In this document: positions 1,150-62,050 of the stretch, in pieces | How positions within the stretch are numbered: the first letter of the stretch is position 1 | Layout: each line of letters opens with the position of its first letter | From: Okamejei kenojei | Lineage: Eukaryota | Direction of reading: 5' to 3' | Assembly: GCA_035221665.1 (NCBI GenBank) | Contig: CM069163.1 | Span: 16,120,001-16,184,000, forward strand | Length of the DNA stretch: 64,000 nt | The notes under the pieces: generated by a model | The model's input: the letters and a program-made list of their open reading frames with translations, nothing else | Database searches by the model: none | What the model was told of the DNA's origin: nothing | Program-made: the position numbers and the translations under genes

Positions 1150-1283
1150 ATCTTCTTCTTGCGTATGGCATGCACAACCTAAATTTGTAGGACAACCATT
1201 TGATCTTATTTGATTGTGCACGCCAGGTTGATTGCATTTGTCGAAACAGGGCGGACCACGTGAAGGTTGCAATCTCCCACCCT
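1150..1283 (-). mobile_element. Short non-autonomous retroelement with 5' HDV-like ribozyme, copy 1
   Basis: 12-bp TSD ATTTACAGTGGC (1138-1149, 1284-1295); tail CATACGCAAGAAGAAGA; homologous end to end with 26099-26232. Confidence 0.85.
1230..1283 (-). ncRNA. Minimal HDV/CPEB3-like ribozyme fold, catalytic C retained
   Basis: AGGGUGG-GA-GAUUGCA-ACC-UUCACGU-GGU-CCGCCCU-G-UUUCGA-CAAA-UGCAAUC: P1, P2, P3, L3, P1.1 and J4/2 all assignable. Confidence 0.8.
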
Positions 1284-2327
1284 ATTTACAGTGGCCAATT
1301 GACTTTACAAACTACATGTCTTTGGGATGTGGGAGGAAACACGAGCACCTTGAGGAAACCCAGGCAGTCACAGGGAGAACGTGCACAATCTACATTGTCA
1401 CCACCCAAGGCCAGGAGTGTACATCGAGATTCTGAGCTGTGAGGCAGTGGCTCTACATGCTATGCCACCCCGAAACACTACAGCCGAGTTACATGGTTGA
1501 TGAAGTGCTTAATGTCAAAGACGATTGCTTTTCCCTCGCTGTATCCAGATTATTGAATATTATAGCTGTACTCATCCTAGAAAATGGATAATGTTCCATT
1601 ACACTCCGCAATTATGTCGAGTAGATAGTGGTAAGGCATTGGTAATTTTGGGGTTCCCTCAAAAATAATTTCCAATTCTTATTGTAGCCAGAGTGTTTAT
1701 ATGGCTGGTCCAGTTAAGTTTCCAATTAACAATGTCCACTGGGATATTGATAGCAGGTGCTTTAATGATTATTAATTCCATTTAATGTCACACAGAGGTG
1801 ATTAGACATGCTCCTGTTGGATATGGTTATTGATTAGTATTTAAATGCTACTTGGCGCTCAGTAGGCAGGCCCTTGATGTTTAAGTCTTGTTATGCCTGG
1901 GCATTGCCTACTTCATTGTCAGAGGTATTGCAACTGAAATTGAGCAAAGTGCAATAGTCAGTCAAAATTTTAATTTCTGACAACCCGAGTTTCCAGTTTA
2001 AGCATTTATACAATTTCCCTCAATCCCTGTTGTGGCAGCAGATTCCACACTGGAGTTATCATTAACAGTCTGACACTGATATCCCCCAGTTTTGATCTTG
2101 TGCTGTTCAAGTGCAAATACTTTCTCTGCATTCAGTTGCACTATAGCTGTTAATGGGTAAGCTTCCAACAGGTAATGTTTTCAAAAGAGTTTTGAATTAA
2201 TTTCTCCCTTCACCCAAATGTACAGTCTAATCCAGTTATTATAGCAAGATATGCGAGTTAGTGTTTTACCACGCATCCAAGGTGGATATGTTTGTTTGCT
2301 TGCCTTCAGTACTTTAATCATTGCTGT

Positions 2328-2476: not shown

Positions 2477-5127
2477 CTTTAATCATTGCTGTTTGAATGA
2501 ATACTTTACTGTGCATCATCTTGCACCAATCTGCTGTACTGCAAAGTTATCAAGATGAATGTTATTCTTGGAATTCCAAACATAAGCTGTAAATACTTTT
2601 GACTTCGTAAGTATAGTTTTCCAGGACACACGACACTTGATTGGTCTACAAAATGGTGGATGGACAGGAAGGCTAGTGAAGAACTTCTTAACTCGCATCT
2701 TACTTGAGCAGACTGCTGCAAGATTGCAATCCTACACCATGCGTCTCCCCCTCTCCCCAACCTAGCTCAACTCAACCCTCACCTCGACCAAGTGGCACAG
2801 ACATTATCAGCAGCTCCATGTGCGAGAGGTTTTGTGCATAAATCCTCCTCCTCCTTTGCCATTTTATTTTTGCCTTCTCAAAAGCAGAATGCCTGTGTTG
2901 CCAGGGTGGAGAGACAGGCTGAACACACAGGCGTGCTCGGCGGGGATCTCTTTGGCTGACATCACGCGATTATGTCCGCTTCATTGTTTCCCACAGCAAA
3001 TGGCTCACCTTCAAGACGCTACAGAGGAGCAATTAAAAGGCGATTATTTCTAAAAACCAATTTGTAGGGAAATCATAATACCAGGAACGTATCGAAGGAT
3101 AAATACACCAAGTGCTTACCTTTAAAGTAGGGTTTCCCGCTAAGTGGCTCCGATTCCTAAAAGTATGCCTGCATTTACTCTTTTATCACAACCTTTCCTT
3201 TCATGTGTTATGTGGTACATGTTTTGGTGATGATTATATAACCGACACAAATCCCCAAATACCCAGGAGGGGATAGGGAGAACAACATGTTGAAGAAACT
3301 TTAGTATTTATTTCTTAATTGTCCATTCATTCCAAGTACAAGATGTATGCTTGTATCACAAATCACTTGAATTACATTTTCTAGATTTAATTGTTGTGTA
3401 TCCACAATAGCATGGTATTAAGTGGTAATAAAACAGAAAATGCAGGTCTGTGGAAAGAGAGTGAGACAGTATATCATTCATCAGTTTTCAAACAAAAAGA
3501 TTTGATTTGAAGGATACAAGGTTATATAAAACATATATAAACTACTTCAAAATACTGTAGTTCATTGGTAATAAAATGCAACCAGTTCAGTTAATGTGGA
3601 CTCCAGAAGAACAGAGAGCACCTTCAAAGATTAAACAAAATTTAATTATTTCCCTAGCCACGATGGGTTAGCCTTCCATCAAAAGCAGTGGATGATTAAC
3701 GTTTTGAAAATTGAAAACCACCATGTTTGGATTAGAAAGAAACATTGACCATGTTTGGATTAGAGAGAGCTATGAACATTTTGGATGAAATTCCATCCAT
3801 TGTGATATTCCTGGACTGGCAAAAATACCACTGTGAAGGCAATAGATCAAGACTAAATAATGTTAGATGGAAGCCATGAGAAATTGTGCAAATAAGTGCA
3901 ATTTCAAGTCAATCAAAATATTTGCATGATTTCTACCTGGGCCAATTGACTTCAATCTTTGTAAATTGTGTTCTCCCTGCAGGAGATCTGGCTTGGAACA
4001 AATAAAGATCACATATAGGGTCATAATACCATAATGCCAGTTCTATAAATATTTATGCATTCTCAGTAGAAACCTTTAGTCAAATGGTGAATTTACCCTT
4101 AAACCAATTAAACCTTGTCGTTGTGCAGCGCCAGGTTGAACAGTTGAGCGTCACCGTGCGGTTGCCCAGCTCTCGTTTAAGTAGCAATTTCTAACTAGCT
4201 TCAGAGTTTGCAAATTTATTGAGTTGTACTTCAAAGATTTATTTTTATTGATCCTTATTTCACAAATTGTATGCAGTTACTTTTCCTTTATTCTACTTTT
4301 GTTATTGTAAGCAATAAATAATCCATAGGAAAAGGTCGTTTTTGGGCAATGCAGGTGAATTGATTAGATTGTTTTCTTCCACTGTAATGTTCTGCTACAC
4401 TTCTGAATTATTTATTTCAATGTTCAGGCTATTCTATGCAGTAGGAAACATTTGTGAAGCCTTATCTTTACTTGAAATCAAACATGAGATTAGCAGTTTC
4501 TTCCAGAAAACGGATGTAATTGGAACTCATGCTCTCCATGTTGGAAAGTTGAAGTGTATTACTTTAATTACTCAGATTTTTCTGAGAAATTAAGCTTCAG
4601 ACAGTAATTCCTGGACTGTCATCTCTCGTCTCCCCAGCATTTAATGTGCACTGCTGGAGCTCGGTATCTAGAGCAGCTGGGCTGGGCCTGCTACATTAAG
4701 CAGGTATCTGATGATTTTCTTTGTAATTGAATGCAGTATTGATTAATGAAATATTAAATTGATTATTTGGATGTGTTAAACCATCAAATGTTACCACTTC
4801 ATGGTGAAACATAAGTTGTCAAAGTGATAACTTAAAGTAAAGCTACATTTCAATAACTGGCATGTTACTGAAATACTGGATGCACTTTCCTGAAGAGCTT
4901 ATCACCAAATTACCAGATAACCAAATTAAATGCATTCATTTCATTATAAATTTGTTATTAAAGTGTTTTAATTAATTGTCATGGTATTTTTAAAAGAAAC
5001 TCAACATTGCAGTTGAGACCATTCAGCCTATTAAGTTGATGCTGGCTCCCTGTTTCCCCCATTCTTCCTCCAGACCTCTAAACTTTTGTTATTATATTGC
5101 CACACACTCTTTTAATTTAAATGACAG

Positions 5128-9029: not shown

Positions 9030-10880
9030 TTCTATAGCACATTTAAAAACAACTCTCATTGACCAAAGTGCTTTACATCAGTGCAGGTACTAACGTGCTA
9101 CAAACAATGGTACACAGATCTAACAATACATACATACAGCGCTCCCTCAGAGGACCTCAAGAAACGCATGTTAGTAGAAATAGGTTTTAAGTCTAGACTT
9201 AAAGGAGTTGATGGAGGGGGCAGTTCTGCTGGGAAGAGGGATGCTGTTCCACAGTCTAGGTGCTGCAACCGCAAAAGCGCGGTCGCCCCCGAGCTTAAAC
9301 CTGGACCACGGATAGTCAGTAGCCCAAATCGGCCGACCTGAGGGACCTGGAGGTAGAATGGTGGGTTAGAAGATTTTTGATATAGGTGGGGGCAAGCCCG
9401 TTAACGGAGTTGTATACATATAGGAGGAGCTTGAAGTTGATTCTGTACCGTACTGGGAGCCAGTGGAAAGAGGCCTGAATCGGGGTGATGTGGTCCCTTT
9501 TACGGGTACCCGTCAGAGGTCTCGCTGCGGCGTTTTGGGCCAATTGCAGGCTGATGCCAGTGTATAGGGAATTGCAGTAATCAAGGCGGGATAAGATGAA
9601 TACATGGATGATTTTTTCAAGGTAGTCAAATTAGACAATAGACAATAGGTGCAGGAGTAGACCATTTGGCCCTTCGAGCCAGCACCGCCACTCAATGTGG
9701 TCATGGTTGATCATCCCAAATCAGTACCCAGTTCCTGCCTTCTCCCCATATCCCCTGACGTTATTTTTAAGAGCCCTATCTAGCTCTCTCTTGAAAGCAT
9801 CCAGAGAACCTGCCTCTACGGCCCTCTGAGGCAGAGAATTCCACAAACTCACCACTCTCTGTGAGAAATAGTGTTGGAGGAATGGTTTGATTTTAGCTAT
9901 GGTACGAAGCTGGAAGAAGCTAGCTTTTACCACAGCATTGACTTATTTGTCAAACTTTAATGCGGAGTCAAATATCATTCCAAGGTTTTTGACGTGCGGT
10001 TTGAGTAAGGAGTTAGGCTTCCAAGGCTGCCTGCTATCATTTTGATGGAGTCCGAGGGGCCAAGTAGGATGACCTCAGACTTGCTCTCTTTTAGTTGGAG
10101 GAAGTTCTGAGCCATCCAACACTTTATATACTCGAGGCAGTGCATAAGGCTGAGTAGATTTGATCGGTTGTTGGGTTTCAGGGGGAGATAGAGCGGTGTA
10201 TCGCCTACATAGCAGTGGAAAGAAATGCCGTGCCTTTGAATGACTTGGCCGGGGGGGAGCATATACAGGGAGAAGAAAATGGGACCTAGGATGGAGCTTT
10301 GTGGAACCTCGCAACAAAGGCTAACTGGGGAAGAGAAAGAGTTGCCTATGTTGGTAGAGAAACTCCTATCTTTGAGGTAGGAAACGAACCAGCTCAGGGC
10401 AGTGCCATCACCATGAACCCCGTACTGGAGACGGTCAATTAGAATTGTGTGGTCCTCTGTACCAAACGCTGCGCTGAGGTCGAGAAGGAGCAGGATTGCA
10501 CAGTCGTCGGAGTTGATGGCGAGAAGCAGGTCATTGTGTACCTTCAACAAGGCAGACTCTGTGCTGCGCTGGGCCCTGAAACCAGATTGGAAACTTTCCA
10601 GGATGGTATTTTGGTGTAGGTAAGGCATTAGTTGATTTAGAATTACCTTTCAAGGACTTTTGAAAGGAAAGGCAGTTTGGAAATAGGTGGGGCTAGGTTA
10701 GGTTTTTTCAGGAGGGGCTGGACCACTGCGTGCTTGAAACAGGTTGGAACTGTGCCAGTTTCTAGAGAACTGTTGATGATAGAGAGGATGCTGGGAAGTA
10801 GGGGCAACGGAAGTAGAAGGGCAGCAGGGACAACGTCGAGGGGGCAGGTTGCAGGTTTCATAGTGGAGACCAGCTTTACG
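9030..10880 (-). mobile_element. L2-clade LINE, 5'-truncated RT and 3' tail
   Basis: QSGFRAQRSTESALLKVHNDLL..LLLDLSAAF, VPQSSILGP, YVGDT (decayed YADD), HITPI.ASFHWLPV, and the L2-type tail TGTAAAGCACTTTG...GTGCTATA. Confidence 0.9.
9630..9872 (-). mobile_element. CR1-type LINE 3' end nested in the L2
   Basis: FSQRVVSLWNSLPQRAVEA plus a tail ending in CTATTGT repeats; near-identical to 53140-53380. Confidence 0.85.
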
Positions 10881-24330: not shown

Positions 24331-26098
24331 TATGCAGGAGTTTGAACAGTTTGAGAAAAAGGCTATGATCTCTTTATACGTCACCTGAACATTCGTCTTG
24401 AATGAATGATGTCACCTCCAAATGTATAAAGTAGCAAAATATTAAACCACGACCTCTACACTGAACAGAAGTGTCATCAGAGATTGAGTCCTGAGATCTT
24501 GAGGAGTAATTACATCAGCTACAAGTTCAGAGAGATGTTTATATTCAGCAGAAGTCACACTATTCCTATTTTTAAAAAGTTAAGTGAGTTAAAAAATTTC
24601 AGGAGTATTTTATCCAGATCTCGCACAAATGAACACGAAGTTTTCCTCACTGCCATGCTGTGGAAATACAATTGCTCTGAATGAATTCACAAACTAAAGA
24701 GAAGCTAGCAACAAAAATACCTCTCCAAGGAGCATATTACACCTCACATCAAAGGAGATCTTTCATACTGGGTAAGTACTTCTGAAGAAAACCCAAGCTG
24801 GTTCTGAACATGCTGGTACAGAATACTAATTATTTCTTTCACCTGAAGAGGGGTGAGAAGAGAAAATCGCCTATGTTCCATCAGTCTGATAATCTGTTCA
24901 CTGGTTCCAGCTTGGAAACTTTGACTGTCATGACAACCTCTTTACTGCCTATGACAATCACTGACAATTAGCTCTTGTCTATCATAAGGCATTGTCATGT
25001 ATTCGATTTACTCACAGGCCGCCAGCCATAACTCTGTTTTAAAAACAGTGCATTTCCTGCCTAAAATGCATATTGAGAAGACGTAATGCAAAAACATTTC
25101 AAGACACTAGTTGGTCTCCCATAGTGTTGCACAGGAGGTGCCCAGAGCAAGTGTGCTCTTTATATAGAATGGGAATGAGAAGCAGTGCATAATTGGCCCA
25201 GGGTTACACATTTTAAAATTGTACAATTTATTCTTACTTTTGTTATTATTTTAATATAATTTCACTCCATGTGAGCTGTCAAGTCGTAATGCACTTTCCC
25301 ATTTTAAAGTCATTCTTGCTTGAAAGCTGAGAGTAAATATTGGTTGGAGCAGGTAGATTTTATGGAGAACAGCGCTGAGATGGTGGAATATGACTGCTAG
25401 TAGAGGAGATTGTAATTAATAGCATTGCATCTTAATGTAAATGATTTCCATTATAACTGGGCTGCTGATGGGAAAAAATGGCATTGTGACAAAAATGTCA
25501 CAGTGCTGGAGTGGCCAGAACATGCACACATTGAGAGATTCCCTGAAATTGGAATGTTACAAGCTTGTTGTCCCACACTTGTTCACTATTTATGACAAGG
25601 ATAAATAACATTTTTCTTAGTTATGTTGATCTTTTATGATTTGCATCTTTCATTTCCAATTGACTTCCATCTTTCTGGCCTCCAGGCAATTAATTGATTA
25701 GTGAGGTGAATGGAAGAACAAAGGAGTATAGTTTAAATACTCCAAAACTGCAATGTCTGTTTCATCCTGTGCATCAATGTGAATGGTGATTTCTTTGTTT
25801 ATTTTTGTTTTGCTGTACAAAATTTTATGCATTATTTTGTTCAAAATTAATCATTCTTCAATGGCAATTGCACAGAATGACAGTCTGGTTCATCTTTGGT
25901 GGTTAGAAGGCACAATATATTTTGATCATTGTATGCTGATGTAATTTGGTTCCCAATTTGGTAATACAGTTTTTTAGTTTATTGGAATATTACACTATTT
26001 ATCCCGTGGACCATGGTACATGCACAATTCAAAGGGCCACAATGTCACCTCTGGTAGGAAGGTTTGATTATATTGTTAACATAAGCAATCAGCATTAT

Positions 26099-26152
26099 GG
26101 GGTGGGAGATTGCAACCTTCACGTGGTCCACTTTGTTTCGATGAATGTAATC
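26099..26152 (+). ncRNA. Minimal HDV-like ribozyme fold, probably inactive (catalytic C>U at 26142)
   Basis: GGGGUGG-GA-GAUUGCA-ACC-UUCACGU-GGU-CCACUUU-G-UUUCGA-UGAA-UGUAAUC. Confidence 0.75.
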
Positions 26153-26232
26153 AACCCGACGTGCACACACAAGTCGATCAAATATTACAAGTTGACCTAC
26201 AACTTTAAGCTGTGCACGCCATACGCAAGAAG
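26099..26232 (+). mobile_element. Short non-autonomous retroelement with 5' HDV-like ribozyme, copy 2
   Basis: 11-bp TSD ATCAGCATTAT (26088-26098, 26233-26243); same 5' start and same CATACGCAAGAAG tail as copy 1. Confidence 0.85.
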
Positions 26233-29200
26233 ATCAGCATTATAAATACAGGAATCCTCAATAGAATTATACACACAGGTAAAATATTTTTAATATCAGT
26301 GGTGTAAAGTGTTTGTGTCTGCATTTTTTTGTTCATGTATTGATATGTTGTTGTAATAACTGTTCCAACACATTGGACTTTTCGGGTCAGTAACTTCAAT
26401 GCAGATGTTGACCCATTCACGGGGATTATTTATTAGAATTCATAAAAGACTGATAGCCAGAAGAAAAATATTACCATCGTTGCAGAAAACATTTTTATAT
26501 GGAAGAGACACTGAGCCACGATTCATTATATCCAACCCTAAATGGAGAGATATCTGAGCAAACAAAACATTTGGGTACCTTCAAAACTATAACTTGAAAG
26601 CCTTTATTCTCAGTATATATTTTGTGGAGTATTTTGATAAGCAGTTTGGTACAGTCAAACTACAGGGATTCTGTGAACATTAAAATGTGCTCACAGAATA
26701 AATACAGGTGAATGTTTGTACGTTTTAGATCATATGTATTCTGTCCTTATTTTCATATAATTGATATAATTACACCTATCTCATTTTCATACCATTGTAT
26801 CGTGTATTTTATTGCCAAGCCACTAACCCAATATTGATGAGGTCTGAGTTTTCAGAATACTGCCAAGGACAATAACTAGAATTACCATATTTTCTTGAGT
26901 CTAGCCCTGATCACTGTTTATGGAATTGTGCGCACGTGTGGGTTATTAAGCGACATCAGACTTGGCCACAAAATTAAGTTGCCACAACAACTTAGTCATA
27001 TAGAGTCATATAACATGGAAACAGGCCATTCACCCCATCAAGTCAGCACTCTACTGATTCTATTTTATTCTCTCCACATTCCCAAAGTTCCCCCAGATTC
27101 TATGACTCACCCACATTAGGGGCAATTTCCAGCAGCCAATTAACCTACAAACAAGGGAGGAAACCAGATTGCCCAGAAGAAACCCGTGAAGTCACAGGGA
27201 GAATGTACAAACTCAACACCTGGCAATGGAAGGATTAACAACTACAATTTTAGACTTGAGATGTGGAGGCATGAATTGGTAAAAATTGAGTATCTTAGTA
27301 TTATCGGTATATAAGATTTGCCTCGTAACTGTGGGTGATGTTCTGTTGAGGCAGCCAGAAAGTGAGAACCGAATAGAGTATAAATATTACATATTCTTGG
27401 ATAGACTCAGTCACTGTAGAGAGAGGAACTCTGTACCAGAGTTACCCTGGTTATTGCTGGGAACGAGCAAGGCTGCTGTCACAAAGTTTCACAAATGAAG
27501 AGAGCAATTGTAAGATTAATTCTATCAAATGATAAGAAGTTACAGTACTTTGAGAGTAAGTTAGGGAGGGCCATATCAGGAGAATGGAAGCATATCAAAG
27601 TTTTTTTAACTAATTCTTGTATTTGAGCTGAGCTGGCAAACTCACCATTAATTGCCTATCCCTGGTTGCCCTGAAAAGGTTGCACTTAGGCTGGAGACCG
27701 GAGAGGTGTTGAGACCCATGATATTATGCTCAGCTTGAACCATTGGCCTCAATATTTAATCAGGACTGGGAAAAGGCTGGATGGAAAGAATTCTGGATGG
27801 GGATCTCGGAAGTTTAGGTTTCCCAGACTCCTTGCTGAGATTGACTGCATGATATTTTATAACTGTTCTCGGAAGGTTTCTGCCCAGTGGGTAACCAGCT
27901 TGGCAGACTGGCTGCCTGTTGGGCATGAAAACGGATGCCGGGTATGAGAGTTCAGGGAGAGAAAGGCATGGTGGCGATTGATGAGAAGTCTGATGTTCCT
28001 TGGAGGAGGAGGAGGAGGTGGGGGGGGGGGGGGAGTGTGAACGAGGGCATGTTGAAAACCATGGTGGAGGGAGAAGTTTTTAGGTCACTGGTTGTGGTAA
28101 AGATTGCCAGGGATTGTGGGGAATGTGCACACAGTGGGGGGGGAAGGGGGGTCGTATGGGAGGGTGTTTGTCAGGAGAGTCGGAGGTGAAGGGTTATGGC
28201 AGGAGAGGCATGGGTTGTGAAGTGAGGCGGAGGTGACTGTTTGTGAAAGGGAGCATCAAGAATGTTAGATTGTGTCTGCAGAGGCAATGGTTGAATTGGG
28301 TAGTTGGAGATGGCAAGGTTGTTGGGGGGGGGGGGGGGGGGGATGTCTGGGTCGGCAGAGGTTGTGATAAGAGTCCGTGGTGATAGGATGGTGGAATGAT
28401 GATGAGCATTTTCTGTCATGGCAGAAGATGATAATGCATCAAACGTCCTGCCTTGGAAAGCATTTGGAGATTATTTCAGGGGGAGAATAGAGTTTTATAT
28501 GTAATCCTGCACAGATACAATTCTTCATGTTTGTTTCACCACAACTCCTAATTGCCTATGCCACTATATTGAGGCTAGAATTCAAAGACCACTATCAACA
28601 GAAATACAAGCTCTGTGTAGCCCCAATTGCTGCTCTCTCCTTGTCAAACTGAGTAATGCTAATTAAAAGGGTCTATTTTTAAACTGTCTGTTTACTGACG
28701 ATAACTATCTTTATTATTATCTGTAATGTCTCTAGTAATGTGTCAGATCACAGCTTGTGCTGCAATTATTAGAATAGACAACAATTTAAACTTGACCCGA
28801 TTGAAAGCACTCGCTTGTCTCTCTCTGTGTCAGGGGATTGCTTTGGAGTTGGGGGGGGGGGTTGGTTAGTTGCTAGTGCAGTAAACAGCTGCTACTTAGT
28901 ACAATAAACAAAAAGAGGTTTGTGTAAATTGAGCACCTGTTAGACAAGGGATGCTCCTGTCAGCTGGCAAGTTGGGATTCTTTCTTTTGAGTGAAACTTC
29001 CCATTGTCATTTGGTTCTGCTGGGTTCCCTGGTAATAGCTCAACACTATGCCAAATCTCTTTTTGTTAAACAGATTATGTTTGAGTTGTATTAGAATTAG
29101 TTATTTCCCATATCACTGTGACTGTAAATTCACTAACTTAAAACTTGATTTATTTTTTAAGGATTTTATTTTGCCTTTAATTGTATTTGTAATTATTTGG

Positions 29201-57981: not shown

Positions 57982-60692
57982 AGGCGATCAGAACCCCGGT
58001 GCACAGAAAGAGGTGAACCGATGCAATGATCATCAGTCAACGTGTTTTCAGTCGGTTAAACGTACGTGGGAAGAACTCTTTCCGTGGAACAAATGCCGGA
58101 CCACCTCAGGCAAAACAAAATTTAGGGTTAAAGTAACAGCCTCTTAAAACTTAAAATAATTGCTATTGATTTCACCAAAGCAAACGCCGCTCCAGTGCCC
58201 GAATCTGAAGGTTCTAGTTACCGAATTAGTTGCAATATTTCGGTTTAGCGACAAGGAGAGGAACCGGTGATTATCTTCCAGAAAAAATAAAAGTTTACAT
58301 GCAAATATGTTCAGGAGCCAAATAAATTCATCGCATTTATTTTATTAATGTACCAGAACTACAAAAATAAAAGGTTTTTATTCAATTATTGAAAAATAAT
58401 ATTACACTCCCATTCATTTTTTTCTCCTTCCAATGCTTCAGCCCACGCACTGACCCAACACGGCGAGTGATGACTATGTGTGGGCGCCACTGCAGCCGCC
58501 GCCAGCTCAGTGAAAGCTGCAAGTTATCCCGAGCCAGGCGCCGGGAAAAAGCTCCACAAGAAACATTTCGTTTCAGCGTGGCGCGGCAGCGACGGCCAGA
58601 CAATTGATGTTTACATTTATTTGAGTCCAAAGAGTCCACTTTTTTTTTTAGAATTTTCCAAATACCTGGATTATTATTAACATCTTTTCATCTTTTTAAA
58701 ATATTTTTTTAAAAACAGAAAAAAAAACCCGAAACCAGGTGAAATATTTTAAGTTTTGGTCTAAATAAATATAAACGTAATATTACAATTTGAAGGTTTA
58801 ATTCCTGAATTTGTGGGGTTTTTTTAAAGACAACAAACTTCGATCAAAGTTTAGACTGGAGCTTTAGACTTTAAAGATCGATGATAGAAAATCGGCTCAC
58901 ATTTGAAAGCAGGGCTCGAAACTAAACCTGCAGCCGCAGAAACGAAGTTATAGTTTCTCGAGAACAGCCACATTTCCCCCCTGTTGTTGAGACTGGCCTT
59001 GGGAAGTTTTCCGTTTCCTCGTCGTTCTGTTTGAATCATATCACAATGAGCTCTGGTCCAGTGTAACTCACTGGTCTGGAATGATTCTTTTGATTCATGT
59101 TAAGCTGCGCCAACGTTGACAGGTTATCGTTTGAGTCCGACATTCGTTTATTCTGGGCCCTCAGCTGATCGAAAGCCACTGATGCAGTTTAACGTCTCTC
59201 GCGCTGGGAGCGCGGGGCTCAATATCCACTATTTTTTTTAATGTTTGCTACCATCTGTACTTTTAATAACTCCCTCTCACACACGGGCACGTTTTTATTT
59301 ATTGATGCCGGTTTGCAAGAAACTCATTCATCTCAGCCCTGATGAATGAGTTCTGACTGTGCCAGCTATCTCTCAAGCCCCCTCGTACCACACACCTCGC
59401 AGACACCAGTCTGTCTCACTCCTTCTGACCTTACCCCCTTTTCCGCTTTACACTACATCTGCTCACTTCCCACTCGTAAGATTTTAACTTGGGAAATATT
59501 GTTTTTAAAAAAAATCCGAAGTACGCAAAGCACAACATCCACATTTAGAACCGCTCTCGTGTTAAAAAAAAAATACAAGGCATGTATTTTAAATAACTTT
59601 TAGGTCCCTGGCCTCCGCTTAGTGGTCACGGGACCCCGAACACACAGTGTCGGGGCAATGGAATTTGTCGTTTCTTTGACACGTTTCTTTGACTGACGAT
59701 GGATACAAAATGCTGGAGTAACTCAGCGGGTCTGGCAGCGCCTCTGGAGAGAAGGAAGGGTGAAGTTTCGGGTCGAGACCCTTCTTCAGACAGTTGATCC
59801 AGTTCAAAACAAATAGGCGTAGATTAACTTAGTTAGTACAATCTCGCAGAAATGCAACTAACTGCGACTTTTTAAGGACACGTTTAAAATCTTCCCGTTA
59901 TATTAAAGTCTGCCACCCTCATTTTACATTTTTCGGGAAACGACGCCTTGATGAACAAACTATATTTTAATACTGTTTCCTGAAAGTAACTGTTTAGATT
60001 TTCTGACAAATAAACTCTAAATAAAATAAAGTTATTTATTACATTATTAACATGTTATTCAAGAGATGTCACGGTACTTGCTCGTTGACAGAGGAACCGC
60101 CCAGCATAGACGGTCTATTTAGGAATATTTGTTTATTAAACCGACGCGAAGGAGATCGTCAACTATTTTCGTTCTATTATTCTTTTGCTAAATAATTGCG
60201 ATGGAAACCAGTGCCGTAGTTATCCCCCGATAGTCACACGTGGGGTCAGACAGCACCACGATCATCGGCGGGTTGACTCTGCCCTGCTGACTTTGACCTG
60301 AAAGTTAGTGGCGGAAAGGGAACAAAAGATTCGGCAATTGCGGATTCCACTCTCAATGCTACTTTAGTGTGAAAGGCGGCCGTTGCGTTACACCTCCGTC
60401 CAAACCACTTGAATTGTGTGCAAAAAATAAATAAAAATAACGATCACATTTTAACACGGATAGATTGCCCGAGAAATAAAAAGCAAACACGCTCACTGGT
60501 CGATATCCAAGCCCAGGCCGCTGCCATCCACTAAACTGTGGTCGCTTTAATATATAGAAAGGAACATGATATGTGGAGTTCTCCCCACTCTCAGCATTTG
60601 TGCCGACTTATTCTAACTATATGCCTAATATTAGCAGAAAATCGAGTTTGAATTATTTCTTATTTGTGGAGTCCGACCAGCTGTCGGCTTAC

Positions 60693-61143
60693 CTTTATAT
60701 TCCGTGTCCGAGGAAGAATTCTCCCTTTTGTCCAGTTTCTCTCTGAATTCTTCTCCCTGTTTGTGCGTCGTTTCCTGGGGCGTTTGGCCGCTGCTGGAAT
60801 ACGGGGCGCAGGCCGCCAAAGGTTTGCACTCGCCCAGAATGTCTCTGATGAGGAAGGATGAAGTGGCAGTCCTCGCCTGGGGCACGGCACACAGCTGCCC
60901 CGGGTGCGGCCGCGAGTCCAGCCCGCCAGCGGCGCCCGGCAGCGGCGGTGGCATCTCGCCGCACTCGGTCCCGGGCGAGGATTGGGAATCGTGCTCGCTG
61001 CCCACGTCCGACACTGGGCTCAGAGCGCCTTTCATCTCTGGCGGCGAACTGCAGTCGCCTATCAACGAATCTCCTTTGGCCAGGACCGGGCTAACTGGCC
61101 TGTGGGATAAGATCGAGTCAATCCCGAAACTGGAGCCTTCCAT
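60693..61143 (-). CDS. BARHL1: BARHL1 (BarH-like homeobox 1) coding exon 1
   Basis: MEGSSFGIDSILSHR... contains two FIL/eh1 motifs (FGIDSIL, SSFLIRDIL), CKPLAACAPYSSSGQ and SSDTEYK. Donor GTAAGC at 60692. The short N-terminus and DDX31 synteny favour BARHL1 over BARHL2. Confidence 0.96.
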
Positions 61144-62050
61144 GTCTCACCTTAAATGGTCATTTGGAACAAAGTTGGCTGGAACTCGGCGGCGAAATCC
61201 TTCCGCTTCCAAACAGCGATCCCGGGCAATGAAACTCTTGACTTCAATCTCCAATAGAAAGTTGGTGCAAAATCTGAATCTCTTTGTGGCTTGAAACAGG
61301 GTCTAGATTCTAGTTGGGATGTCGTTTGGACGGCGAATGCGTTTCAGAACCGTGGACAGGGGCAGACCGCTCCTCCAAGGATCGTTCTCCGCGCACCAGA
61401 ATCCCGCCCTCCCCGCGACACTTTTGGACTAAAATGCACTTCTGTCACTTTGCAAGGGATTTTTTTCCTCTCTTTTTTTTTAATGTGTCCGTAACACGTG
61501 CCCGAGCAAGAGCGTTTCTGATTGGGGCTTCTGCCTGACATCACAGTGACTGCGAACCGACCCTGTTAGTCGAAATGAGAGGAACTGGAATGGATGACGC
61601 CAGGAACGCCGGCACTTTCCGCAGTTTGTTTAGATAAAGCAATTGTGGATCAGGGTGGCGGGGAGGAGGGGTGTTGCTGATGCAGAGACACTTAACCTCA
61701 GCAAAATTCTGCTTCACTTTCCCGGAATTTTATGGAGGGAAGCAGTTGCCATAAAGTTGTCCAATTACAGTCTGCGGCCAAATTTCTGGGAATTCTGCGT
61801 CTTAAAGCGATGTCCAGCTGTCTCAGTGTCTCAAATATTATTGTGGTTGTCCGCGGGCAGGGTTCACAGGGTGAAATATCGAGTCTTTTGCTGACATCAC
61901 GGGTGAAGTTCTTTACATTTTCCAGACCATTCCAGCAAGTCACTCCAGTTCAAAGGCCGCATACATTACAAGTTTACCTGACTTTGTGTAATTCATAATG
62001 TCATTATTTTCGCTCATTGATCACGAGAAATTAACCTTTTAATCGGGAAA
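61144..62050 (-). promoter_or_regulatory. BARHL1 5' UTR and proximal promoter
   Basis: CpG-rich and repeat-free. CCAAT box on - (ATTGG at 61521-61525), GC-box-like CCCGCCCTCCCC near 61403, two TGACATCAC motifs (~61536, ~61892) and TAATTG on - at 61762-61767. TSS not determinable. Confidence 0.6.

Follow-up and report, generated by a model that had tools for sequence, protein, structure and literature searches.

How does a dispersed element of little more than a hundred bases, which encodes nothing and opens on what reads as a self-cleaving ribozyme, arise and multiply? The window, by which we mean the whole stretch of 64,000 nucleotides analysed here, raises this question with two copies, one on each strand (Table 1). 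Their coordinates, common ends and flanking target-site duplications (12 and 11 bp) are as an earlier note on this DNA had given them, and a 23-base pattern of the head matches exactly these two places in the window, with 0 matches expected by chance. Both copies bear marks of decay. Copy 1 has A for G at base 1 and A for G at the second base of J4/2, and copy 2 is predicted to be inactive because it has U in place of the catalytic C; neither has the CGAA that the earlier note had read as the J4/2 consensus. That note had also taken the differences between the copies in P1 and P2 as pair-preserving; most prove to be one-sided C-to-T decay, and the P1 U-G/U-A change alone stands, as a subfamily character (36 and 20 of 60 full-length copies).

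A tRNA-derived SINE (1296-1470 on the minus strand, and 1050-1137) surrounds copy 1; from its looks it is probably a V-SINE. Elsewhere in the window lie an L2-like reverse transcriptase (RT) fragment (9975-10649, minus strand) and an open frame (60631-61146, minus strand) that presumably resembles the first exon of a BarH-like homeobox gene.

Table 1. Positions in the window of the two element copies and of their parts
Feature	Position	Strand	Remarks
Copy 1, whole element	1150-1283	-	12-bp target-site duplication on both sides
Copy 1, upstream target-site duplication	1284-1295	-	12 bp
Copy 1, predicted HDV-like fold	1230-1283	-	54 nt; P1, P2, P3, L3, one-pair P1.1
Copy 1, details of predicted fold			5-nt loop replaces P4; catalytic C at 1240; base 1 is A, not G
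Copy 1, fold and next part			88% match to parent nt 2-77
Copy 1, ATG across J4/2 and P2 3' strand	1235-1237	-
Copy 1, closing stem, 5' arm	1215-1225	-	z -4.1 for 3' half
Copy 1, linker without alignment to parent	1191-1206	-
Copy 1, last codons of parent, stop and 18-nt 3' UTR	1161-1190	-	stop at 1179-1181
Copy 1, closing stem, 3' arm	1166-1176	-	within the 1161-1190 part
Copy 1, (AAG)n tail	1150-1160	-
Copy 1, downstream target-site duplication	1138-1149	-
Copy 2, whole element	26099-26232	+	11-bp target-site duplication on both sides
Copy 2, upstream target-site duplication	26088-26098	+	11 bp
Copy 2, predicted HDV-like fold	26099-26152	+	catalytic C to T at 26142; parent nt 1-80 at 84%
Copy 2, closing stem, 5' arm	26158-26167	+
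Copy 2, last codons of parent, stop and 3' UTR	26200-26226	+	parent nt 3008-3041, 94%
Copy 2, closing stem, 3' arm	26211-26220	+	within the 26200-26226 part
Copy 2, (AAG)n tail	26227-26232	+
Copy 2, downstream target-site duplication	26233-26243	+

Results

A predicted HDV-like fold begins at the first base

The head of the element is predicted to form the nested double pseudoknot of HDV-like ribozymes, with P1, P2, P3 and P1.1 in the right order, and the predicted fold begins at the first base of the element, as had been proposed from copies 1 and 2. A strict descriptor (P1 and P2 of 7 bp each, P3 of 3 bp, 7-nt L3, P1.1, J4/2 beginning with C) matches copy 1 only in the window, and gave 0 matches in 60 dinucleotide-shuffled windows and 0 in 20,000 shuffled heads. 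The fold joins two weakening features, a P1.1 of one pair and a missing P4 helix, the latter replaced by a 5-nt loop in the element, in its parent (see below) and in one sister family (H). Minimum-energy folding of the whole copies (z = -1.3 and +0.7) is uninformative for a pseudoknot. Against Rfam, the window matched no family at the gathering score and the element matched none of the ribozyme models, including the CPEB3 ribozyme model RF00622 (the element locus L011 was among those scanned), and a tRNA gene search of the window returned none. The lack of a Pol III head that the earlier note had described is thus borne out, the head being the 5' end of a LINE.

Thousands of copies share a fixed first base

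A DNA search of the 2.76-Gb genome with the element returned 2,083 candidates, of which the 40 scored are 91-93% identical to it (the copy itself excluded), and a 21-base pattern of the 3' end has at least 3,762 exact occurrences, against 0 for the reversed control. To the question of whether genomic copies have random 5' ends, which the earlier note had raised, the 3' pattern gives an answer, since we took the first 70 of its places on contig 1 and disregarded the 5' end in the choice: the first base is shared in 60 of the 70, where the head is reached (48 align from base 1 and 12 from bases 2-5), and the other 10 are truncated. Target-site duplications of 7-15 bp flank 48 of the 70. Of the full-length copies, 45 have a recognised duplication, which stops within one base of G1 in 29 of them; immediately before G1, 29 of the 60 have T and only 8 have G.

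The core of the predicted ribozyme is largely retained in these 60 copies, with G1-U in 46, U20 of L3 in 59, G25 in 53, the catalytic C in 51 and the P1.1 pair in 58; only 10 are intact at all pairs and core bases, as expected if copies decay. Variants are commonest in J1/2, in the U-G/U-A pair of P1, in the P4 loop and at the second J4/2 base. The element thus described is a family of several thousand dispersed copies, 105-136 bases long without the tail, which has no coding capacity and has undergone amplification of its own with target-site duplications; median pairwise identity is 0.89 among 23 copies. Words of the element are also present in sequencing runs of seven organisms from 13 studies, and in contigs from two of these (organisms B and C) base 1 is again where similarity ends, with the same deletion spanned.

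Just 5' of the stop codon, in the element or its parent, one and the same TTTA/TTAA-like site has repeatedly taken insertions of a small inverted-repeat element (L082, L096, L099, L100, L104, L111, L517).

The element consists of the two ends of a Vingi-type LINE

The earlier note had suggested looking for long APE-RT elements that carry both ends, and one was found. Protein search, followed by fetching of 20 weaker matches, led to a parent of 3,034 bases (L485, G000:C7:50578304-50581337, minus strand), which has the element's head with the same 5-nt P4 loop and the same 3' UTR and tail, all inside one duplication; negated sequence patterns gave no LINE among the matches read (30 of 55 and 30 of 67). 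The 5' part of the element corresponds to parent nt 1-77 to 1-96 (84-89% identity) and the 3' part to nt 3008-3043 (94-97%), with junctions at parent nt 77, 85, 91 and 96. In a shorter subfamily nt 91 is joined directly to nt 3013, and the main form has a linker of about 22 bases that is common to copies and does not align to the parent. In copy 1, as in most copies, this linker holds two short reverse complements of the parent's last codons with their order swapped. A reading of the linker as the start of the endonuclease was rejected, since the pattern derived from it gave only two interrupted short copies and the codons are the last of the ORF; a looser version of the pattern led to the sister family A.

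Searching for the parent family gave 782 candidates, of which 40 were scored and are 79-95% identical to L485. Among 30 fetched parent loci, 24 finish in the element's 3' sequence, and the element's stop codon closes their ORF. All parent frames read are broken, including the endonuclease and RT frame of L485, whose pieces are 46-79% identical to the database protein P0109 (1,019 aa; APE and RT families, no RNase H family). In one parent copy (L517) a reading frame interrupted by one stop links the ATG across J4/2 and P2 to the endonuclease, and the equivalent ATG position opens an intact ORF of 1,034 aa in a metagenome contig (L318). Some short copies lie inside or beside parent copies (L495, L496, L489) and would be useful for relative dating.

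With a length of 3.03 kb and a nearest database protein that has APE and RT without RNase H, the parent fits at the sequence level the layout given for Vingi in the accessible text of PMC13708176, which is a compact single ORF with APE and RT and no RNase H. A 36-row RT tree, built without named Vingi or Ingi references, groups the parent with P0109 (97/92); the two stand beside a clade of families A-E, G, I and J (100/96), and the RTE outgroup is on a long branch. A structure search returned no solved structure closer than LINE-1 ORF2. Of the two kinds of helper that the earlier note had named, RTE or Ingi/Vingi-type, the parent supports only the latter. An RTE partner was considered and rejected: the DUF6451 RTE of this genome ends in (AAG)n too, but 0 of 20 loci share the element's 3' sequence or head. 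Some of the ribozymes reported under the Ingi label (Ruminski 2011) may be of Vingi type. The label SINE-like, also used in the earlier note, does not hold, as the element is an internally deleted LINE; by its sequence it falls in a known class, the short internally deleted elements (SIDEs) or bipartite non-autonomous LINEs.

Sister families keep the fold while changing its stems

Further families of the same type (A-J) are present in the genome, each starting with an HDV-like fold recognised by eye or by descriptor. The youngest is family A, with a median pairwise identity of 0.99 and open frames of up to 778 aa (L127-L136, L138-L167); its P1.1 has two G-C pairs, like HDV, and its head reaches 32.1 of 44 bits on RF02682.

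When the descriptor was run at up to 2 mismatches on 15 representative heads, 9 passed and 6 failed, both parent copies among the latter. In the nine passing families pairing holds in 63 of 63 cells of P2, 27 of 27 of P3 and 59 of 63 of P1, each position of P2 showing two to four kinds of pair, and the first base of J4/2 is C in 9 of 9; P1.1 turns from C-G to U-A in family C. These counts are partly circular because the heads were selected by descriptor, although the heads of the compared families had been located independently of it, at insertion junctions. The covariation for which the earlier note had proposed a test is therefore present between families, but not between the two window copies.

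Several sister loci are of note in their own right. Family H is a second short element of about 165-180 bases (L289-L292, L294, L296; e.g. G000:C1:8173675), with a head that scores on the CPEB3 model, a 5-nt loop as P4, a 12-bp closing stem and an (AAG)n tail. A single copy of an even shorter derivative, in which only about 20 bases separate a family E-type head from the tail, was seen at L283 (G000:C24:11947458). Family B heads also occur within a larger repeated unit with a common upstream flank, many on small contigs (L198-L210, L231), and a metagenome Vingi-type head (L350:430-600) has a large insert after L3, unlike the compact heads.

The two ends are complementary

In families A-D and the element we first noticed that the two ends can pair in a helix which starts at the fifth or sixth base after the ribozyme, that base pairing with base 5-7 before the tail. 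Families E and G, family H and three metagenome elements, all read later, fitted this prediction, and families I and J and the parent fit it by eye only. On an anchored score across 11 families, six of which played no part in setting the anchor, the top-scoring partner is the family's own 3' end for all 11 rows and for 10 of the 11 columns, and 0 of 100,000 permutations matched ends as well as observed, in a set where A, B and L388 are related and where the ends of B, C and D were taken from different copies. Stem sequences differ from family to family. Shuffled 3' ends equalled the real score in at most 4 of 150 cases for nine families; for the other two of the 11 the per-family result is not significant (A, 15 of 150; H, 11 of 150). 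A loose, unanchored duplex test is weak (z from -4.1 to +0.2). In the main subfamily of the element, two bases differ from the parent and lengthen the stem to 11 pairs.

Heads of sister families resemble the CPEB3 ribozyme

The earlier note had likened the element's L3 loop to that of the CPEB3 ribozyme. The likeness goes deeper than the loop, by way of the sister-family heads. A search of the genome with RF00622 gave 42 matches among 59 scored candidates, of which 30 exceed the cut-off of 35 bits (best 66.8), and the same search of 14 control genomes gave no match. Families E (12), F (7), G (5) and H (6) account for these 30 heads, which are dispersed, have unrelated flanks and are not the single-copy CPEB3 intron 2. 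Counted by eye, 44 of the first 46 ribozyme bases of one of them (L269) agree with the Rfam consensus. Two heads (L303 and L315) run into Vingi-type frames, a sense frame being found in only 2 of 20 extended CPEB3-like loci, and 8 of the 30 heads face away from a C-terminal fragment, as in 5'-inverted insertions. Outside this genome, the 5' end of the crocodilian Vingi-2_Gav, given in the supplement of PMC5786205, agrees by eye with the CPEB3 consensus at 52 of the 54 bases that lie outside the tip of P4; the heads of families E, F and G tie these families to it, also by eye. The accessible text of PMC5786205 does not mention CPEB3.

The element itself shares with the CPEB3 ribozyme (RF00622; comparison sources PMC8233481 and bioRxiv 2022.09.22.508989, as far as accessible) the same L3 and J1/4, a P1.1 of one G-C plus U-U, the G1-U wobble and a catalytic C first in J4/2. 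It differs in its stems, in having no RF00622 score and no P4, and in being dispersed, whereas the CPEB3 ribozyme is single-copy, intronic and conserved.

The resemblance of the sister heads might instead reflect convergence on a constrained fold, or a retroelement that captured the mammalian ribozyme, and either seems unlikely. Convergence of cores has a precedent in the R2 ribozyme, 21 of whose 27 core bases equal those of HDV according to the accessible part of PMC8256844, and no tail, stem or duplication was seen at CPEB3, whose intron flanks lay outside the comparison. The identity, however, extends over P1, J1/2, P2, P3 and the base of P4, where the other families are free to differ from one another, and the dispersed CPEB3-like heads lead into Vingi-type frames and obey the closing-stem rule. 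They are found, moreover, in this genome and in the crocodilian Vingi-2_Gav, while the CPEB3 ribozyme is reported, in the accessible text of PMC8233481, from mammals only. We infer common descent of the sister-family heads and the CPEB3 ribozyme, most simply by insertion of a Vingi-type element into early mammalian CPEB3; a Vingi fossil, X12_LINE, is recorded in human DNA (PMC5753468, accessible part).

Discussion

How the element may spread

Most probably, then, the element is the first 77-96 and last 30 or so bases of a 3.03-kb Vingi-type LINE, and is likely to spread by means of that LINE's protein after its HDV-like head has, as is likely, freed the RNA at base 1. A longer transcript, host-driven or self-started, would run through a copy; the head would fold and cleave 5' of G1; the closing stem would join both ends into a compact unit of ribozyme, stem, terminal motif and (AAG)n; and the LINE protein would recognise this two-ended unit, its endonuclease nicking DNA and its reverse transcriptase copying from the tail, so as to leave the 7-15-bp duplications. 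Cleavage at base 1 followed by target-primed copying by a LINE protein is suggested by analogy with R2 SIDEs (PMC3414825) and trypanosomatid elements (PMC4035085), each as far as accessible. A recognition signal made of both ends would leave everything between them deletable, and would thereby explain why two-part miniatures keep arising in this LINE group.

It is improbable that the parent supplied only the ends and another LINE, either a sister Vingi-type family or an (AAG)n-ended RTE, the protein. The genome holds at least ten Vingi-type families that end in (AAG)n-type sequence, of which B, D and H are similar in age to the element, and the youngest, family A, shares with it the last seven bases before the tail. 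Yet the parent has the entire 3' end in common with the element and matches it in age, the median identity of 0.89 among element copies overlapping with the 79-95% of parent copies to L485, and the RTE loci share no 3' sequence (0 of 20).

Alternatively, transcription might start at base 1 from an internal Pol II promoter in the head, and the ribozyme fold, once deprived of P4, might be a weak or dead passenger. In L1Tc, Pr77 is both promoter and ribozyme (accessible parts of PMC3383444 and PMC4035085); moreover, the alignment of 12 of the 60 full-length copies starts 1-4 bases in, only 29 of 45 duplications stop within a base of G1, P4 is missing and P1.1 has a single pair. We consider this distinctly unlikely, as pairing and the catalytic C are kept in families whose stem sequences differ freely, a constraint that a DNA promoter would have no use for, and as HDV-like ribozymes without P4 are active in phages (PMC10879173, accessible part); nor are the roles of promoter and ribozyme exclusive. 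That the short copies are repeated internal deletions made during parent insertion, and no self-propagating family, is scarcely credible despite the several junctions, as the linker common to copies of the main form largely refutes it and short copies far outnumber parent heads (3,762 exact 3' words, 0 parents in 70 sampled).

Relation to known elements

The element belongs to a class of ribozyme-headed short LINE derivatives already described in R2 SIDEs, NARTc, RIME and SIDER. By the accessible text of Eickbush and Eickbush (2012, PMC3414825), the R2 SIDEs of Drosophila are, like the element, non-coding, with both ends of a parent LINE, an HDV-like ribozyme at base 1 and a middle of unknown origin, and those with HDV-like heads self-cleave in vitro. 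They are about 0.5 kb long, rare and confined to 28S rDNA, whereas the element is short, dispersed and present in thousands of copies, has an APE-type parent, lacks P4 and has a closing 5'-3' stem. NARTc, RIME and SIDER of trypanosomatids (PMC4035085 and PMC3383444, accessible parts) are also short derivatives with an HDV-like ribozyme head, derived from Ingi-clade LINEs, the ribozyme being active in vitro in several cases. They differ in their protist hosts, in the 77-nt Pr77 with its shown promoter activity and in parents with RNase H, and no closing stem is seen in the structure described in the accessible part of PMC4035085. The minimal or theta HDV-like ribozymes of Kienbeck (2024, PMC10879173, accessible part) have P4 replaced by a short loop, as in the element; nearly 99% of them are in phages, whereas the element's heads belong to an animal retroelement and its parent LINE.

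According to the accessible text of Kojima (2018, PMC5786205), bipartite non-autonomous elements are reported only from RTE, Ingi, Vingi and R2, and Vingi-1_EE yields many of them. By eye, the part of SINE2-1_AMi labelled "3' unknown" there can be read as a closing hairpin together with family G's terminal motif. In the literature searched, largely open access and in part accessible, we found no description of this family, of the closing stem or of a P4-less head in an animal retroelement, nor any proposal of a Vingi origin for the CPEB3 ribozyme; the accessible parts of PMC6765202, PMC10274809, PMC8256844, PMC12415542 and PMC10879173 likewise lack these features.

Implications

We lean towards a general design of Vingi-type elements, in which base 1 opens an HDV-like ribozyme, often with the start codon inside it, and a stem joins the bases behind the ribozyme to the 3' UTR; the element would be its minimum, the CPEB3 ribozyme a domesticated 5' end and the sister families the outgroup reported as missing. 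The sister heads likely reveal where the CPEB3 ribozyme came from. They name a concrete source for a ribozyme that has been studied for its link to memory and reported as mammal-only (PMC8233481, accessible part), and provide natural relatives to test. A two-ended signal would give a testable answer to the open question of why few LINE clades yield two-part miniatures, as posed in the accessible text of PMC5786205. Vingi-1 is in development as a means of inserting genes from RNA alone, with a template that carries both UTRs (PMC13708176, accessible part), and a required 5'-3' stem and a minimal unit of about 130 bases would bear on the design of such templates. The element would also be an instance of a P4-less HDV-like ribozyme in an animal genome.
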